Source: a virus (Duplodnaviria; Heunggongvirae; Uroviricota; Caudoviricetes). Taken from it: a stretch of 21,391 nucleotides of DNA. Position numbers and translations under genes: made by a program. A model generated the notes under the pieces. The model made no database searches. It was not told the origin of the DNA and was given only the letters and a program-made list of their open reading frames with translations. Below, in pieces: positions 1 through 14,864 of the stretch. Location of the stretch: IMG/VR virus record IMGVR_UViG_2778261068_000006, positions 1 through 21,391 of that record; one strand, written 5' to 3'. Every line of letters begins with the position of its first letter. The stretch's first letter is position 1.

Positions 1-1020
1 CTACTTACTGACCACAAGCGGCAAATCCAGTGTTGGGGTGATTTTGGTTTTACGATCGTAAATCAACACCTGATTTTCTGTTTTGTGTCCACTGAAAATT
101 TGTTTGTCGCGACTGCTGCCTTCGTAATCTGAAATCCCTTTGGCTTTTATGTCATGGAAGTTGCACCCAAACGGAACGCCGGCTTTTTGCTCGGCTGCAC
201 GTTTAGCCTGATTCCACCAGTTGTTCAGCGTCTTGGCTATTACCTTCCCGCCTTTGGTTGTGTTGATCACATACTCGCATGTGCCGGAAGATACATTTCG
301 GGCTAACTGGATCGCCGTACGTAATCGCGGAGACCATTCCTTGATTTGTTTAGTGCCGGTCTTGTTTTGCTCAATGTAAATCCCTTTATCCATAATATCC
401 TGCCATTTCAGCTCGAGTACATCACCGAGCCTTGCCGCACAAAGATAGGATATCTCCATTGCAATACGTAACTGTGGAATTGCTTCCGCATATATTGCAG
501 CATACTGTTCATCGGTGATGTAAACAGTACGGGCTTTAAGTGTGAATTTTCTGACTCCTTTGCATGGATTATTTTTCACATACCCACGCTCATATCCCCA
601 TCCGTATACACGGCTCAGACTTGCCAGTTCATGGTTTGCCTGGGTCTTGCTCTCAAGTCCTCGCTTATCCATGAAAATTCTTACCTGTTCAATTTTTACA
701 TTATCAGCAAGCACTTTTCCGAATACTGCCAACAATGCCCTTTGATGTTGCCGATAATCTTTTTGGGTTCGGGGTGCCAGTTCTGTAAATGCAGGGGAGT
801 CCATAAACATGTGCCATAATTTAGCTACTGTCATTATGTTGTGGAGTTTTGCTTTTTCCAGCTCATAATTTTGCCAGACTTTAGCTACGCTGGTTTCCCG
901 CACTCTTCCGAGCCCTATAGTTCTTGTGCTTCCTTCGGGTTTCCATACGTAACTGTAACCATTCGATCTAACACGCGGTGGTAATGCATTATCTTTTTTG
1001 TTTTTTCTTGGTCTTCCCAT
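1..1020 (-). CDS. int: Phage integrase, tyrosine recombinase (lambda Int-like); complete, stop codon at bases 1-3
   Basis: 339-aa ORF; N-terminus MGRPRKNKKDNALPPRVRSNGYSYVW resembles lambda Int N-terminus (MGRRRSHERRDLPPNLYIRNNGYY); C-terminal catalytic region contains H-x-x-K/R and LIYDRK tyrosine motif; position at prophage edge, overlapped by upstream xis-like ORF. Confidence 0.9.
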   Translation of the reverse strand: MGRPRKNKKDNALPPRVRSNGYSYVWKPEGSTRTIGLGRVRETSVAKVWQNYELEKAKLHNIMTVAKLWHMFMDSPAFTELAPRTQKDYRQHQRALLAVFGKVLADNVKIEQVRIFMDKRGLESKTQANHELASLSRVYGWGYERGYVKNNPCKGVRKFTLKARTVYITDEQYAAIYAEAIPQLRIAMEISYLCAARLGDVLELKWQDIMDKGIYIEQNKTGTKQIKEWSPRLRTAIQLARNVSSGTCEYVINTTKGGKVIAKTLNNWWNQAKRAAEQKAGVPFGCNFHDIKAKGISDYEGSSRDKQIFSGHKTENQVLIYDRKTKITPTLDLPLVVSK

Positions 1021-1240
1021 TGTTCAGCGCCTCAAAATCGGGTTCAGCGGAAACCAGTTCAGGTGCTTTTGGCATCGTAGCCAGTCCGTGTGGAATATCC
1101 CTGCGAAGAACTATTGGTTCGTTTTTAGGACCGATTACAAATGGGATACCGTGCAGCCTTAACTGGTGTTGCTGTTTTGTGTATCGCTCGTATTTCGTGA
1201 TCTCTTGAATCTCTGCTGGCGATAGAGTTAATTCGTACAT
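989..1240 (-). CDS. xis: Excisionase (lambda Xis-like)
   Basis: 83-aa ORF starting MYELTL (lambda Xis starts MYLTL) and ending with basic NGKTKKKQKR tail (lambda Xis ends NGKKAKS); overlaps int start by 32 nt as in lambda xis-int. Confidence 0.65.
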   Translation of the reverse strand: MYELTLSPAEIQEITKYERYTKQQHQLRLHGIPFVIGPKNEPIVLRRDIPHGLATMPKAPELVSAEPDFEALNNGKTKKKQKR

Positions 1241-1306: not shown

Positions 1307-3787
1307 TTAAAAATCAACCGGATTCGGGATCAGTTTTTGCCAGATTGCTGAAACGTATTTTGCCTGGTGACGGGCGTCATCCAGTGCATTGTGGCGAACG
1401 CCTTCGAATGGAATAACGGTTCCAGCATCAAAGTCGATTGTTTTTCCCAGCTCAACGATTGTGCGTACATCGCGATCGTTGTGGTAGCGCCACGGGCAGG
1501 GGATGTCCAGACGTTCGTATGAGGTGCGCAAAATTGCGTTATCGAAAGTTGCACCATTACCCCATACCTGAACGAATTTTTCATCTGAGTATTCGTTGAT
1601 GAACTCCCGAAACCGCGAAAGGGCATCCTTCAGTTTTACCTGGTCTGTTAAAATGGCAGCTCTGGCTTCACTGGACTGCTTCAGCCACCATTTGATGGTT
1701 CCACCGTCAGGAGCAGCCCCTGTATTCATTGCGTCAGTCAGACTGATAACGATATAAAATACTGGCCCGATTTCCCCTGTTTGTGGGTCGAAGAAAACCG
1801 CACCAATAACCACGATGGGCGCATTGGTGTTGGTTCCCATTGTTTCAAGGTCGATCATCAGGTGGTACCACACTCTGCTGGTGGATGTGATAACGTGATG
1901 ACCGTTCACCACAATTAAGGGATCTGCCGTCTCACCAGTTTCATTATCGCTGGCGTGGTCCTGAGCGCTGCCAGCATTCTCCTTGTGTGGATGTTCAGCG
2001 CCTTCCATTTCCTCCGGGTCATTTTCCTGAACTTCAACCTGATTCTCTTCATCGAATGTTTCCTGGTATGTTGCGTCGCCCATCACCGCGCCACAATCAG
2101 GGCAGTTGCCGCCACCGCTCTGACCGCAGGCGGTGCAGACTTTTTCCGGTTCCTGTTGCGCTACTGGCTCAGGTTGTTTCGTTTCTGGCTCGTTTTGTAA
2201 CGCATTTTGGCTGTTTTGTTCCGCTTTCTGGTCGTTCTGTTCCGATTCTTGCTGGTTCTGGTTTACAGAATCGCGGGTTTCAATCCCCTTCACCCATTTC
2301 GGATCATTCGGGTCGCTAATCCCTGCAACAAATTCTCCGCGAGAGGCAGCAAGCAACTTATCGGCGTCAGGCTGGCTGATATTGGCTGCCTGCATAATTT
2401 TGTTTACTTCGTCAGCGGTAACTTTTACCGGCTCTGGTTGTGCGGTCGTGTCAGATGCACCAGTATTTTGTTGTGAACCTGAGTACGTGCCGTTTTTACG
2501 GGCAAAATATTCTTCTTTCGTGATTTCAGTAGCCCCTGCAGCCAGCGCCTTATTCAGACCAGAAAGTTTGTTTGCACGACCATATTTTTCGCCATCCTTA
2601 TCGGTGAAGAGGAAGTAGAACGGCCCCTCACGCTCTACAGATGGTTCAGTTTCCAGCGCGCTTTCATTTTTTTGGGTATCAGATACTTCAGTTTCCACTG
2701 CATCAGTTTGTGCTGCTGACGGCTGGAGAATATCAGCAGTGCTCTGGTCTGTTTCTTCATCCTCAAACACGCCCTTTGTCGCCAGGTATTCAGTGATGTA
2801 TTTGTTCAGCGCCACGGGATCTTTGTGAATGTCGATCGGACGCTCACGGACAAGGCCAAAAATAGTCTGACGGTCGTAGCGAACGGCATCAGGTTGTTTG
2901 CGCATTGATGCGGAAATACGCTTCCAGTCTTCGCGATCTTTGTCGATAACCTCATTTTTTGCCCAGCGATGGATGCTGCCGTCAATGTTTCCGGCATCAA
3001 TATCACCAGGCCAGAAAGCGTAGGCCAGTTCTTCATCCAGTGTTTTCCATGTCTGCTTGTATTCGCGACGAATGACAGCAGTTACGGAGTCAGTTTTTCC
3101 TGCAGAGTTTTCAGTGCCTTGCCGGTTGACTCTGGCGCGGGCAAGATCGACGACGGAATTATATGCGCCACCTTCTTTGCGCTCCTTTTCCATGCGTTTT
3201 TTACGTTCGAGAAAATACGCCTGAACGTCGGGCCATTTGGCTGTTGGTTTTAAATCACGTCTGGCATCGTTGATGTACTCAATCTGACGCTCTGGATACA
3301 TGGCGTTAATTTCTCTGGTCCGGATAATTGCTTCAGCGAGGTGTCCATCAAAAGTCGTCATCTCGTCATCGCCGAGAAGCCCGCTTGCATTGATGACCAT
3401 ATCCACGGTGATGTTTTCATGTGTACCGAACCTGACAAGGACAGCAGCCCGCTTGTCTTCAGATAACTGATTAAAGTTAACAGTTTCTGTATCCGGTTCA
3501 GGGTCGACCGGAACAAAGGAAGCCGACTCCTCATTCCAGCGGTTTTCCTGCATATATTCGGAATCCCAGGAATCGAGAGCAGGGCGGGCCATGCCGGGTT
3601 TATCCTCGCAGACAAGAAATTTATAAGCACAGTCCTGAGCTTCCGGGTATTGTTCCAGAAATAACCAGCTAAATTTGGCTCTTGCCCGGCGTTCGTCGCC
3701 TGCTTCAATGGCAGTGGCCACAGGTTTGGCGCCTTCTGCTGTTGCCTGTTCGTCCGGAATGGCGGCGCAAATAAAGACTTTACTCAT
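1307..3787 (-). CDS. Large prophage exonuclease-like protein: C-terminal DnaQ-like DEDDh 3'-5' exonuclease domain, internal zinc ribbon, acidic Q/E/N-rich linker (resembles prophage 'exodeoxyribonuclease VIII-like' proteins)
   Basis: 826-aa ORF with SD (gagg) upstream; C-terminus has exonuclease motifs MIDLETMG (Exo I, D-x-E), WGNGATFDNAIL (Exo II), HNALDDARHQAKY (Exo III, H-x4-D); CTACGQSGGGNCPDCG zinc-ribbon motif; located in the lambda exo/bet position. Confidence 0.6.
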   Translation of the reverse strand: MSKVFICAAIPDEQATAEGAKPVATAIEAGDERRARAKFSWLFLEQYPEAQDCAYKFLVCEDKPGMARPALDSWDSEYMQENRWNEESASFVPVDPEPDTETVNFNQLSEDKRAAVLVRFGTHENITVDMVINASGLLGDDEMTTFDGHLAEAIIRTREINAMYPERQIEYINDARRDLKPTAKWPDVQAYFLERKKRMEKERKEGGAYNSVVDLARARVNRQGTENSAGKTDSVTAVIRREYKQTWKTLDEELAYAFWPGDIDAGNIDGSIHRWAKNEVIDKDREDWKRISASMRKQPDAVRYDRQTIFGLVRERPIDIHKDPVALNKYITEYLATKGVFEDEETDQSTADILQPSAAQTDAVETEVSDTQKNESALETEPSVEREGPFYFLFTDKDGEKYGRANKLSGLNKALAAGATEITKEEYFARKNGTYSGSQQNTGASDTTAQPEPVKVTADEVNKIMQAANISQPDADKLLAASRGEFVAGISDPNDPKWVKGIETRDSVNQNQQESEQNDQKAEQNSQNALQNEPETKQPEPVAQQEPEKVCTACGQSGGGNCPDCGAVMGDATYQETFDEENQVEVQENDPEEMEGAEHPHKENAGSAQDHASDNETGETADPLIVVNGHHVITSTSRVWYHLMIDLETMGTNTNAPIVVIGAVFFDPQTGEIGPVFYIVISLTDAMNTGAAPDGGTIKWWLKQSSEARAAILTDQVKLKDALSRFREFINEYSDEKFVQVWGNGATFDNAILRTSYERLDIPCPWRYHNDRDVRTIVELGKTIDFDAGTVIPFEGVRHNALDDARHQAKYVSAIWQKLIPNPVDF

Positions 3788-4423: not shown

Positions 4424-4481
4424 TTAAAAAGGGCGGACATCAGTTCATGGGCAAACAGATGCCGCCAAACGTCACCAGAAA
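4424..4481 (-). ncRNA. dicF: DicF small RNA (ftsZ-targeting sRNA of the Qin dicB operon) with 3' intrinsic terminator
   Basis: Minus-strand sequence TTTCTGGTGACGTTTGGCGGCATCTGTTTGCCCATGAACTGATGTCCGCCCTTTTT matches the K-12 DicF sequence as I remember it (UUUCUGGUGACGUUUGGCGGUAUCAGUUUU...GCCGCCCUUUUU) with an identical 5' seed and a GGCGG/CCGCC hairpin plus U-tract; lies upstream of dicB as in Qin. Confidence 0.7.
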
Positions 4482-5492: not shown

Positions 5493-5900
5493 TTATTTTA
5501 TTGATTTGTTTTTACGTGCTTTAAGCATTTCTTCGAAGAGTTTATTGAAATTCTCTACTCTTGCGCGCATTTCAGACAGTAAGGCTTCCTGCTCGGAGGA
5601 GGGAAGAGCATCGAATAATTCGATCAATTCTTTGTGGCTGGGAGTTAACTCGGTTTCCACATGAAGTTCTTGTGCTGGCACTGGTGCCTTGTCTTCGTCA
5701 CCAAACATTAGCCATGTAGGCGAGCACTTCAGCGCATCAGCTAAAGCAAATAACCGCTTCCCGACCGGTTGGGTTTCGTCTCTTTCCCATTGTGAAATTG
5801 TGACGTGAGCTACCCCAGCGAGGCGTGCAGCTTCTCGTTGTGTTAGGCGTAATTCTTTTCGTCGTGCCAGAACTCGCTGGCCTAGGGTTCTTGTATCCAT
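5493..5900 (-). CDS. dicA: Prophage repressor, HTH XRE family (DicA-like, cI functional analogue)
   Basis: 135-aa product; QREAARLAGVAHVTISQWERDETQP HTH; C-terminal ...CSPTWLMFGDEDK...EMRARVENFNKLFEEMLKAR matches remembered DicA (135 aa); divergent from dicC. Confidence 0.85.
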   Translation of the reverse strand: MDTRTLGQRVLARRKELRLTQREAARLAGVAHVTISQWERDETQPVGKRLFALADALKCSPTWLMFGDEDKAPVPAQELHVETELTPSHKELIELFDALPSSEQEALLSEMRARVENFNKLFEEMLKARKNKSIK

Positions 5901-8259: not shown

Positions 8260-8532
8260 TTACTTTTTTAAAGAATAAGGGAATATGTGCACCATATTGG
8301 AGGCTAGTGGATATATTCCTATGCCACGAGTTGTCTTTTTTAGTTGATCTATGCTTGCTCCTTGATCGGGAGCTTGGCCTCCCCACACTGTAACCCCCTC
8401 AGGTATATCAATTGGGCGACTTTTGTTTTCATCTGTGATTTCAATAGTTTCTCCATTATTAAGTGTAATAATCAACGATGACACGTCTAGGTGTTGTGTA
8501 TTCCCATTTTTATTTTTAATGTCTATTTTCAT
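8260..8532 (-). CDS. Hypothetical protein in AT-rich island
   Basis: 90-aa ORF in markedly AT-rich segment (about 8123-8880); no clear SD; coding status uncertain. Confidence 0.3.
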   Translation of the reverse strand: MKIDIKNKNGNTQHLDVSSLIITLNNGETIEITDENKSRPIDIPEGVTVWGGQAPDQGASIDQLKKTTRGIGIYPLASNMVHIFPYSLKK

Positions 8533-9387: not shown

Positions 9388-9580
9388 TTTTATGGATCAC
9401 CTTTCTGATTGATTTCATATTGGCGAGGTTACGGGAGTTAAGTAGAATTGCTGCGGGTGCTTGAGGCTATCTGTCTCAGGCATGAATGCCAAAAGGCAGA
9501 TAGAGAAAAGCCCCAGTTAACATTACGCGTCCTGCAAGACGCTTAACATTAATCTGAGGCTCAATCTATGAACGGCAAAT

Positions 9581-10654
9581 CTAGGTTAGCCTCTTACGTG
9601 CCGAAAGGCAAGGAGTTGTATGGGTCCACCACATATTGCAATTTTTGTTCTCTCTTAAAATATATTCCACGGGTGTCATTAGCGCGAGCGCCTTATGGGG
9701 CCTTTTGCTGTTATACAGCACCAGATATTCCGCCAGCTTCTGATTAAATAGCGCCAGATCTTCAAAGAGTAAAATCTCATTAAATTCAATAAACTGCTCT
9801 CTTAACGTCCGGTTAAAACGTTCACAGATAGCGTTCATTTTTGGCGTGTAGGGATAGGTCCAGAGGTGTTTGATAGCGGCTTCCTGCAGCGTTTTGTCGA
9901 AGTTTCCCAGGAACTCTTTTCCGTTATCTGTGATTATCTGGCTGATACCGACCGGGAACAACCGGGCTGCGCGGCTGAAGAAGTGATTGACGATATCACT
10001 GTTGAGTGACGGCACAGCCAGCGCCAGCGCGTAATTGCTGCATTCGTCGATCATGGTGATGACATAGCGACGCAGTTCGCCCATTCTGAGCTCAATGGCG
10101 TCCATCCCAATGAGCTCACCTGTCTTTACCGGGCGATAGTGCTTTGGCCTGCGGGGTTTGGCAGACCGCTTTTTGACAAGCAGTGCCTTCCCCCGCGATC
10201 CCAGACGCACAGGTATCATCCGCATTTTATCATGTGCGGCAGCGATCATTCTGCCGATGGTGGAAACACTCGGACAGGCCAGATAGCGCTGTTCGCACCA
10301 GGGCTTCAGGCGAACAAAAATCTGCTCTTTACCGAGGTTCGGCAGCTCTGTCCTGAGGCGTCGAATCTCTTTCAGCACATCGGGATGCCAGTGTTTTTTT
10401 CGTCGCACCAGAGGTGCCTTACTGTGCGGGATTAGCCCCTCAGGTCCTTCCTTGTTCAGTAACTGACGCCACCAGTAAAGCGTGCGGCAGGACACGCCAA
10501 AGGCTTCAGAAGCCGCAGAAATACCGTGTTTATCCCAGAAGTGCAGAGCCTTCATTCTCATTGTTGCTGTATCAGCCATCACTGAAAGCCTCAACGCATA
10601 ATCGGCCGTTTGGTAGTACTTAGGATAGCCAACCATCAGATGCTGCATTTGCAT
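9581..10654 (-). CDS. DDE transposase (HTH + rve integrase-core), IS481-family-like
   Basis: 357-aa ORF; HTH GISAASEAFGVSCRTLYWWRQ; catalytic triad candidates D (MIDECS), D (ITDNGKEF), E (NAICERFNRT); likely true start at internal Met (MADTATMRMK, about 10579). Confidence 0.8.
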   Translation of the reverse strand: MQMQHLMVGYPKYYQTADYALRLSVMADTATMRMKALHFWDKHGISAASEAFGVSCRTLYWWRQLLNKEGPEGLIPHSKAPLVRRKKHWHPDVLKEIRRLRTELPNLGKEQIFVRLKPWCEQRYLACPSVSTIGRMIAAAHDKMRMIPVRLGSRGKALLVKKRSAKPRRPKHYRPVKTGELIGMDAIELRMGELRRYVITMIDECSNYALALAVPSLNSDIVNHFFSRAARLFPVGISQIITDNGKEFLGNFDKTLQEAAIKHLWTYPYTPKMNAICERFNRTLREQFIEFNEILLFEDLALFNQKLAEYLVLYNSKRPHKALALMTPVEYILRENKNCNMWWTHTTPCLSARKRLT

Positions 10655-13967: not shown

Positions 13968-14864
13968 ATGCATGCGTTTAATTACTTTTTGGACCATTGC
14001 AACATGAAATCAGATAAGGCAGAAAACTTAGAGAATCCACTCGAACGTAATGATTTTACAATTGATGACTTCCACCATGTTCTTAGGGAGTTTGATAAAG
14101 CTGTTTGTGAAGCCAATGCGGTAAGTCAGGGAGTAGGTGTGCGAATGGCTGAGGCTTATCAAGGTTGGTCAACATATATATTTGCACGAATTTGCATTCA
14201 TGCTTCGATTATGATTTCTAATGTTCCTAAGTCCAGATGGGCTAAGCGAGATTACGATTTCTGGGATTTTGCTTCTATAGCATCTCATGTCAGGGCGATC
14301 CTTGAAGCTGAACTTCTGTTTATGTATTTGTCTGAAGCACCAGATTCAGAAGAGGCTTGGTCAGCAAAGCTAAATGTTATGCACATGAATGATTGTGTAA
14401 AAAGGATAGAATTATTCACGCAAAGTGATAATACAGAAGCATTAGGGTTTTATAATGAGCAACAGAGTATAATTGCGGAAAGACTCAATAAAAACCCTGC
14501 TTTTTTATCACTTGATAGTGGTACTAGGAAACGTTGCTTGTCAGGCAAGGCTTTAACAATTCCTAATAGAGACGATTTATTGATTAAACTAGGGAAAGAC
14601 CCAAAATCGTTTAAAGTGATGTTTGATTTTCTATCGCATTACACACACATACTCCCTATGTCATATTACAAAATGGAACCGAATGGGAGAGGGACTGGTT
14701 GTTTTAACAAGTTCGATTTTGGATATATAATAATGGGTATGTTGCTATGTACTGAATCTTTGATTAAGTGTACTGAACGGTTGGTGGATATTTTCCCTGA
14801 TGTTAAACGGTTAAGAAAAGGAACTAAATCAAAATTTACATTGGGCCCTAAACCAACAAAATAA
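13968..14864 (+). CDS. Hypothetical protein, AT-rich late-region cargo gene in the Q-tR'-holin slot; function unknown
   Basis: 298-aa ORF (alternative start ATG 14004, MKSDKAENL...); clearly lower GC than flanking phage genes; no signal peptide or TM segment evident; no family recognised. Confidence 0.7.
   Translation: MHAFNYFLDHCNMKSDKAENLENPLERNDFTIDDFHHVLREFDKAVCEANAVSQGVGVRMAEAYQGWSTYIFARICIHASIMISNVPKSRWAKRDYDFWDFASIASHVRAILEAELLFMYLSEAPDSEEAWSAKLNVMHMNDCVKRIELFTQSDNTEALGFYNEQQSIIAERLNKNPAFLSLDSGTRKRCLSGKALTIPNRDDLLIKLGKDPKSFKVMFDFLSHYTHILPMSYYKMEPNGRGTGCFNKFDFGYIIMGMLLCTESLIKCTERLVDIFPDVKRLRKGTKSKFTLGPKPTK

Follow-up and report, generated by a model that had tools for sequence, protein, structure and literature searches.

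An intact ydfE-type gene of a lambdoid prophage encodes a RecE-like scaffold with a predicted DEDDh 3'-5' exonuclease domain

Background

The RecE protein of the Rac prophage, also known as exonuclease VIII, combines a 5'-3' nuclease domain of the PD-(D/E)XK type, which has been assigned to residues 564-866, with an N-terminal part that a recent review describes as being 'of unknown function' (PMC11611040). Here we report on a protein in which a RecE-like N-terminal part is joined to a nuclease domain of a different type and of opposite predicted polarity. It is encoded by an open reading frame (ORF) of 826 codons in the IMG/VR virus record IMGVR_UViG_2778261068_000006, of which the stretch analysed, in the following called the window, comprises 21,391 nucleotides. 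Like RecE, the protein contains an N-terminal domain, a middle domain, a conserved motif, a Cys4 ribbon and an acidic linker, all of them homologous to their RecE counterparts, and its gene takes the place of recE in a leftward operon upstream of xis and int. Different from RecE however, its PD-(D/E)XK domain is replaced by what is predicted to be a DEDDh 3'-5' exonuclease domain (the head), and no recT gene is found downstream of the exonuclease gene.

The solved structure that is closest to the head by sequence is that of exonuclease A of phage T4 (DexA, 8KEL), a free-standing 3'-5' DNA exonuclease of 227 amino acids from a lytic phage. Both are of the DEDDh type and have the same five catalytic residues, but the domain described here forms the C-terminal quarter of a much longer protein and lacks several loops of DexA, including the one that carries D169. 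When plasmid-borne, a DexA-like DEDDh exonuclease of E. coli, EcD or 'HREX', is reported to cleave T4 DNA while sparing unmodified DNA and to make E. coli resistant to T4 (PMC12153337). We liken EcD to the present protein by residue numbering alone, which is consistent with the same domain spacing; EcD appears to be short and to lack a RecE-like scaffold, and it has an alanine where the family described here keeps an aspartate (D721). The founding member of the Pfam family to which the head belongs is Rv2179c of Mycobacterium tuberculosis.

At the level of the gene, the counterpart in E. coli K-12 is ydfE of the Qin prophage. Residues 1-256 of the two products are 67% identical and the loci share the gene order dicF-dicB-ydfD-ydfE ... 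int, but the K-12 copy is truncated by the insertion sequence (IS) IS2 and annotated as a pseudogene, whereas the gene in the window is intact. By sequence, then, the latter is the intact form of ydfE. More generally, the accessible parts of a recent survey of lambdoid phages by Zheng, Casjens, Smith et al. (Genome Res 2025, PMC12315714) describe sporadic DnaQ-type nuclease genes that lie beside int in early-left operons, outside the Rec modules, as well as RecE-related proteins without a nuclease domain ('RecE-2'). Both patterns recur in the window and in the family described below, but a DnaQ-type head on a RecE scaffold is not described in those parts of the survey and no function is assigned there. 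The lambda Red and RecET systems, finally, differ from the present locus in that here neither an adjacent annealase gene nor a PD-(D/E)XK 5'-3' exonuclease was found.

Results and Discussion

The C-terminal region is a predicted DEDDh 3'-5' exonuclease

The gene starts with an ATG that is preceded by GAGG, and its position and length (Table 1) are as given by a first-pass annotation that had been made from the letters of the sequence and a list of its ORFs. Residues 642-816 match the Pfam family PF16473 (Rv2179c-like) with 231.8 bits (cutoff 27; E=5.6e-69) over profile positions 2-177 of 177, whereas RNase_T (PF00929) is reached only below threshold in the same scan (22.1 bits versus a cutoff of 24). 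Alignment with T4 DexA identifies the catalytic residues as D646 and E648 (Exo I), D749 (Exo II) and H799 and D804 (Exo III), and about 110 homologues conserve all five. Among solved structures, the sequence search matched only DexA and its mutant form 8KEN (E=8e-8), and with DexA as the query tblastn finds the region at E=3.7e-12 and about 29% identity. In the AlphaFold2 model the head has predicted local distance difference test (pLDDT) values of about 70-85; its best Foldseek matches are the DEDDh enzymes oligoribonuclease (6RK6) and REXO2 (6RCI), with a probability of 0.99 and template modelling (TM) scores of about 0.6 on the target; the weak E-values (0.06) are due to the use of the entire 826-residue model as query.

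The first-pass annotation had recognised DnaQ-like Exo I, II and III motifs in the C-terminal 200 or so residues and had recommended that they be followed up by profile search and structure prediction. Both agree with it, the one by the PF16473 match and the five aligned residues, the other by the DEDDh enzymes that head the list of structural matches. It had also considered that a domain search might instead reveal a 5'-3' fold of the lambda Exo/RecE kind; the head is of the DEDDh type, however, and no PD-(D/E)XK family was matched anywhere in the protein in the Pfam scan. Taken together, these comparisons identify the head as a complete DEDDh 3'-5' exonuclease domain with an intact predicted active site. 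On its own this domain has relatives in 1229 phage genomes, which by appearance are free-standing genes wherever the annotation was inspected.

Might the substrate be RNA, of phage or host, rather than DNA? The Pfam family bears the name of a ribonuclease, Rv2179c, many database copies of the protein are called '3'-5' exoribonuclease', oligoribonuclease and REXO2 lead the structural matches, and DEDDh enzymes often accept both nucleic acids. The database names, however, derive from the name of the Pfam family and not from experiments. By sequence, moreover, the solved relatives of the head are limited to the DNA exonuclease DexA and its mutant, no entry for Rv2179c having been found in the PDB sequence search at E<=1, and the scaffold on which the head sits belongs to an exonuclease of double-stranded DNA. 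We therefore give little credence to a dedicated exoribonuclease.

Residues 1-626 correspond to the non-catalytic part of RecE

Module by module, residues 1-626 are homologous in sequence to the non-catalytic residues 1-592 of Rac RecE, the likeness being remote in the N-terminal domain, about 40% identity in the middle domain and close to identity in the region of the zinc ribbon and linker. The NCBIfam profile for exonuclease VIII (NF007259) aligns through its positions 259-603 with residues 236-626 (E=2.4e-84), but with 284 bits the match stays short of the equivalog cutoff of 1269. In BLASTP against K-12 RecE, residues 262-626 pair with RecE 278-592 (E=2e-65), nearly identically from residue 475 on and up to the sequence ADPLIV (ADPVIV in RecE). 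At the DNA level the similarity to recE ends at codon 626 as well, and beyond residue 592 of RecE neither BLASTP nor tblastn detected any similarity. The nuclease domain of RecE that was crystallised comprises residues 606-866, which places the breakpoint at codon 626 just upstream of its counterpart. As for the N-terminal domain, the Pfam scan gave no match to the RecE N-terminal family PF06630, but hhalign aligns residues 17-232 with RecE 15-256 at a probability of 98.75% (E=1.5e-16).

Modelling of residues 1-470 with AlphaFold2, based on 30 diverse family members, yields three folded units (residues 1-205, 245-340 and 388-432), most of them with pLDDT values above 90, which are separated by linkers of low confidence. 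No known fold was matched by the first of these units. The second shows a mean identity of 95% among close homologues, and the third, which K-12 RecE lacks, is shared by many members of the family. Sequence conservation among the close homologues is higher in the folded units than in the linkers. The full-length model is of low confidence (mean pLDDT 64.5), leaves the zinc ribbon and the linkers without defined structure and permits no interdomain contacts to be read; most of residues 438-643 have pLDDT values below 50 in it, so that about 200 residues predicted to be disordered would connect the head to the folded N-terminal modules. Within this otherwise disordered region lie the conserved motif of residues 470-500 and a Cys4 zinc ribbon, C551xxC554-x7-C562xxC565 (CTACGQSGGGNCPDC), which RecE and 102 of 104 close homologues have in common and which the Pfam family DZR matches with E=0.14 only. 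The first-pass annotation had rightly noted the ribbon but had counted nine instead of seven residues between its two halves. The acidic linker rich in Q, N and E that it had described was found as well: residues 501-548 are rich in Q and N, and residues 561-600 contain 13 acidic (D/E) and no basic (K/R) residues.

Since residues 1-626 are homologous to the whole of the non-catalytic part of RecE, the protein is, on the evidence of these alignments, a RecE-family scaffold with an exchanged nuclease head and not an unrelated nuclease. The earlier view of it as 'not Red-like' thus holds for the DEDDh head and for the lack of an annealase (see below) but not for the larger part of the protein.

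The scaffold belongs to a small family with exchanged C-terminal domains

When residues 1-626 were compared with 1.84 billion representative proteins, only 240 relatives, counted as representatives clustered at 50% identity, were retrieved at E<=1e-3, and the scaffold family therefore is small. Mapping of domains onto its long representatives distinguished four C-terminal types, namely the DEDDh head, the PD-(D/E)XK head of RecE, a region of about 300 residues without recognised domain and, in one case, a RecT domain. N-terminal domains of the YdfE and of the RecE type, with or without the zinc-ribbon segment, each combine with the first three of these. Several proteins with the unrecognised region (P0126, P0139, P0144, P0145, P0169 and P0186) have a YdfE-type N-terminus, and their C-terminal 300 or so residues found no match in Pfam or among PDB sequences. 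They probably are the nuclease-less 'RecE-2' proteins of Zheng et al.; alternatively, they may carry a head that has escaped recognition.

An exchange of heads within a Rac-type setting is seen in P0130 (L009 6001-8418, GCA_039763085.1). Residues 1-607 of this protein share 88% identity with K-12 RecE, with hardly a difference in the first 360, and are followed by a DEDDh head. Its gene lies in a Rac-type prophage with a racR-like repressor gene, sieB, kilR and ydaE and is directly followed by the genes for a DUF4224 excisionase and an integrase, recT, ralR and rcbA being absent. In fact, the gene with the DEDDh head directly adjoins xis-int, without recT, in every locus that was inspected. 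As the scaffold thus occurs with heads of opposite polarity or without a recognised nuclease, and with or without recT, its function must be independent of the polarity of resection and of RecT. A further member, P0198 (703 amino acids), joins the N-terminal region of RecE (PF06630) directly to a RecT domain (PF03837) and looks like the product of a deletion that fused recE to recT.

That the family is visibly mosaic could also mean that the gene is a non-functional by-product of recombination between prophages. The K-12 ydfE gene is an IS2-disrupted pseudogene and many database entries are partial. However, the ORF of 2.5 kb is intact here, the catalytic residues are kept in about 110 homologues, the predicted folded domains are better conserved than the linkers and the gene is present in viable phages, all of which makes a dead mosaic highly improbable.

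No annealase gene is detected and Chi sites abound

A tblastn search of the whole 21-kb window with RecT, Bet, lambda Exo and Gam gave no match with E below 0.3 (E>0.6 for RecT and Bet, E>1 for lambda Exo), and none of the 20 other ORFs that were scanned, from xis to the Q antiterminator gene plus one beyond, matched an annealase-annotated PHROG family. Erf, Sak and Sak4 were covered by the PHROG scans only, and the RecBCD inhibitors Abc2, GamL and MuGam only through PHROG names. Between the repressor gene and the exonuclease gene lie ydfC, a gene for a 128-residue protein of unknown function, dicB and ydfD, and no others. These results agree with the first-pass annotation, which had noted the lack of an annealase partner and of any ORF of recT or bet size before dicB, where indeed only the 63-codon ydfD (DUF1482) is located; nor did the small upstream ORFs, which it had named as a possible hiding place of an annealase gene, yield one in the PHROG and tblastn searches. 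The same layout of int, xis, exonuclease gene and ydfD without recT is found in the phages Evi, Tritos and PhiR42_1.

The window contains 12 Chi sites (GCTGGTGG), as compared to 0.64 expected from shuffled sequences, none of 100 shuffles having reached 12. Eight are on the + strand (positions 1877, 11805, 11862, 15369, 15849, 20103, 20543 and 20899) and four on the - strand (12395, 12447, 15960 and 17790), a 2:1 bias. One of them lies within the exonuclease gene, in codons 635-637 and about 27 nucleotides past the end of the similarity to recE. L001, Evi, Tritos and PhiR42_1 share this site. The Rac-type fusion in L009 lacks it, however, and we therefore dropped the idea that a Chi site at the domain junction causes the swapping of heads. 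In Tritos, where RecT, Bet, Exo and Gam were likewise not found, one strand carries nine Chi sites and the other two.

According to the accessible text of Zheng et al. (PMC12315714), about a fifth of lambdoid phages form a class that encodes no annealase, nuclease, single-stranded DNA-binding protein (SSB) or RecBCD inhibitor, that carries many Chi sites in one orientation and whose growth is helped by RecBCD. Members of this class are expected to carry eight or more Chi sites on the top strand, and the + strand of the window has eight within only 21.4 kb. With 12 Chi sites in all and neither an annealase nor a recognised RecBCD inhibitor, the prophage by its sequence fits this class of 'no Rec module, Chi-rich' lambdoid phages. 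The lack of an annealase is therefore to be expected of the prophage and is not peculiar to the exonuclease gene.

But could the protein still be the nuclease half of a recombination system whose annealer has gone unrecognised, be it RecA/RecFOR of the host, one of the small proteins encoded nearby or the protein's own RecE-like N-terminal region? The scaffold is that of RecE, and the gene sits where recE sits in Rac. Work by Fu and colleagues in 2012 reportedly found linear-linear recombination to be enhanced by the N-terminal region of RecE. Such an enhancement is also stated in a review (PMC11611040), and DnaQ-type nucleases are located inside bona fide Rec modules of some lambdoid phages, such as epsilon34, in the accessible part of the survey (PMC12315714). 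On the other hand, nothing in the window resembles RecT or Bet, the scanned ORFs matched no annealase-annotated PHROG family, and the interval up to the repressor gene offers just the four genes named above. Furthermore, resection in the 3'-5' direction would leave 5' tails, which are poor substrates for strand invasion of the RecA type, and the abundance of Chi sites suggests that the phage leaves recombination to RecBCD. A hidden annealer thus appears improbable.

Proposed role of the exonuclease

The exonuclease gene is the last gene before xis-int in a leftward operon and lies downstream of the repressor gene and the dicF-dicB genes. A weak consensus scan of the - strand found no promoter-like site directly upstream of it and one such site at positions 5430-5402 (-), below the repressor gene. 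As a gene without a promoter-like site of its own in a leftward operon of the early type, it would be expressed on induction rather than in the lysogen; this is what the operon position points to.

On balance, we lean towards regarding the protein as a RecE scaffold with a DEDDh head of the DexA/Rv2179c type that is produced on derepression and trims 3' ends in a prophage of the Chi-rich class that depends on RecBCD. The leftward operon would be transcribed, and the exonuclease made, once repression is lifted. By the two-metal mechanism of DEDDh enzymes the head would then degrade nucleic acid, most likely DNA, from free 3'-OH ends. We would not expect it to serve as the nuclease half of an exonuclease-plus-annealase recombinase of the Red/RecET type, and for recombination the prophage would rely on RecBCD and RecA of the host. 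Host 3' exonucleases serve the RecBCD pathway by making DNA ends blunt. Most speculatively, the phage enzyme might likewise trim 3' tails and thereby render ends blunt enough for RecBCD to load and to reach Chi. Alternatively, it might simply degrade 3'-ended DNA during lytic growth, as does DexA.

Several points weigh against this proposal. The founding member of the Pfam family, Rv2179c, is a ribonuclease, so that an RNA substrate is conceivable. In the literature searched there is no measured activity, polarity or substrate for any member of the fusion family, and structure comparison of the N-terminal folds returned nothing informative. The promoter scan, being a weak consensus search with counts no higher than expected from shuffles, deserves little weight. 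In PhiR42_1 the gene is accompanied by no more than four Chi sites on one strand and two on the other, and the link to Chi-richness is accordingly loose. Finally, the accessible parts of PMC12315714 explicitly do not count the int-proximal DnaQ-type genes as members of Rec modules and point out that homologous recombination is as a rule impaired by 3'-5' exonucleases, since these destroy 3' tails. A role in favour of recombination is therefore not the default expectation.

A defensive role is another option: as a prophage anti-phage nuclease that acts in superinfection exclusion, the head might degrade incoming phage DNA, for example the 5-hydroxymethylcytosine (5hmC)-modified DNA of T-even phages, in the manner of EcD. 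The first-pass annotation had likewise suggested that host or competing-phage DNA could be the target, an idea for which T4 DexA and EcD (PMC12153337) would be an indirect precedent only. The operon includes dicB, and a phage-protective role of DicB has been published, which we count in favour of this explanation. The gene also is kept, often in several copies, in a large number of E. coli genomes (see below), and W766, which aligns within 2-3 positions of DexA W152, is invariant. EcD provides a precedent by its protection against T4 (PMC12153337), and if EcD starts at the equivalent of M644, its A78 corresponds in numbering to D721, which would suggest the same subfamily with the same spacing. 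But it is the loss of the aspartate at DexA position D90, a tetramer contact, that defines the defence form (PMC12153337), and the equivalent D721 is an aspartate in 110 of 113 homologues. Likewise, the loop with DexA D169, the proposed reader of 5hmC, is deleted here. PADLOC returned only a generic match to a CRISPR-associated DEDDh model (E=9e-5) and no model of a defence system; the operon is of the early type and under repressor control, with no promoter-like site found for the gene itself; and the gene also occurs in viable temperate phages. We thus consider defence unlikely, if somewhat less so than a dedicated exoribonuclease or a hidden annealer.

Beyond the proposed trimming of 3' ends on derepression, one may conceive of the RecE-type N-terminal region, about 600 residues, as a head-independent platform that brings interchangeable nuclease domains to DNA ends. 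The DEDDh form would then be a RecE of inverted polarity that either prepares ends for RecBCD or destroys 3'-ended competitor DNA in Chi-rich lambdoid phages without annealase, and prophages would repeatedly exchange a cassette of head, xis and int by recombination within the linker just before the head. As a whole we regard this extended scheme as doubtful.

The gene in its prophage

The window comprises the left two-fifths of a Qin/DicB-type lambdoid prophage of E. coli or a close relative; the same arrangement is found in the nearest complete genomes, where it is inserted beside yccA. Table 1 lists the features of the exonuclease gene and of the genes around it. The small RNA (sRNA) DicF was missed by the default Rfam scan, its score lying below the gathering score. 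Leftward genes beyond DicF are that for the 128-residue protein, ydfC and a cI/DicA-like repressor gene (5493-5900, -). The + strand carries a Cro/YdaS-like, a YdaT/cII-like, an O-like replication and a Ren-like gene, a hok/sok locus that contains an IS, a DUF968/HNH gene, rusA, Q and the genes for lysis and terminase. The sok antitoxin RNA (9455-9622, +; 105.8 bits) is overlapped at its 3' end by an ORF for a 357-residue IS transposase (9581-10654, -), and the hok/sok locus may have been disrupted by insertion of the IS. Two ORFs had no match in PHROG or PADLOC, one of 90 codons (8260-8532, -) and one of 298 codons (13968-14864, +); the latter lies between Q and the lysis genes, a common site for accessory cargo genes (morons) of lambdoid phages.

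Table 1. Features of the exonuclease gene and of neighbouring genes in the window (aa, amino acid residues of the exonuclease)
Feature	Position	Strand	Remarks
Exonuclease gene, whole ORF (826 aa + stop)	1307..3787	-	intact ydfE-type 'exonuclease'; phrog_2082 over full length
N-terminal alpha/beta + helical domain, aa 1-205	3173..3787	-	homologous to YdfE; remote homologue of RecE N-terminal domain (PF06630 type)
Helical middle domain, aa 245-340	2768..3055	-	shared with RecE, roughly RecE 278-355
Small beta-hairpin/helix domain, aa 388-432	2492..2626	-	confidently predicted
Motif DKLLAASRGEFVxGISDPNDPKWVKGIxTRD, aa 470-500	2288..2380	-	nearly identical in RecE 455-485
Q/N/E-rich low-complexity linker, aa 501-548	2144..2287	-	length varies among homologues
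Cys4 zinc ribbon CTACGQSGGGNCPDC, aa 551-565	2093..2137	-	CxxC-x7-CxxC, common to RecE
Acidic linker ending in ADPLIV, aa 571-626	1910..2077	-	last RecE-like stretch at protein and DNA level
Chi site GCTGGTGG	1877..1884	+	inside the exonuclease gene
Predicted DEDDh 3'-5' exonuclease head, Rv2179c-like/DexA type, aa 642-816	1340..1864	-	PF16473 and catalytic residues
Integrase gene	1..1020	-	leftmost gene
DUF4224 excisionase gene	989..1240	-	directly downstream of exonuclease gene
ydfD-like DUF1482 gene, 63 aa	3880..4071	-	sole gene between exonuclease gene and dicB
dicB, 62 aa	4068..4256	-	
DicF sRNA	4431..4480	-	43.5 bits; Rfam gathering score 48

Distribution and annotation

The gene is common and already annotated. 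Of 5426 complete E. coli genomes, 2168 contain it at a coverage of at least 80% and 4767 contain parts of it, the number of places per genome having a median of two and a maximum of nine. Deposited phage genomes that carry it are those of Evi, Tritos, PhiR42_1 and a relative of mEp460. The names given to the database copies (P0001-P0120) are inconsistent and include 'exonuclease', '3'-5' exonuclease', '3'-5' exoribonuclease', 'exodeoxyribonuclease VIII' and 'exonuclease VIII, ds DNA exonuclease', of which the last two would, by the predicted type of the head, be wrong about both polarity and fold. The N-terminal part of database copies is already covered by PF27430 and PF27432, two newer Pfam families. 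A functional study of a ydfE-type protein was not found in the literature searched, and what is new relative to that literature is the combination of a RecE scaffold with a head of inverted predicted polarity within a family that swaps its heads.

Conclusions

Although it is among the most widespread prophage genes of E. coli, the gene is routinely mislabelled as 'exodeoxyribonuclease VIII' or '3'-5' exoribonuclease', and the predicted polarity of its head, opposite to that of RecE, matters for its annotation. For those who mine phages for recombineering enzymes, the protein is not expected to replace RecE and comes without an annealase. Its architecture gives a lead, modest but useful, on the role of the non-catalytic part of RecE with its roughly 600 residues. 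In the recently described lambdoid phages that rely on Chi and on RecBCD of the host, the gene may encode an accessory factor.

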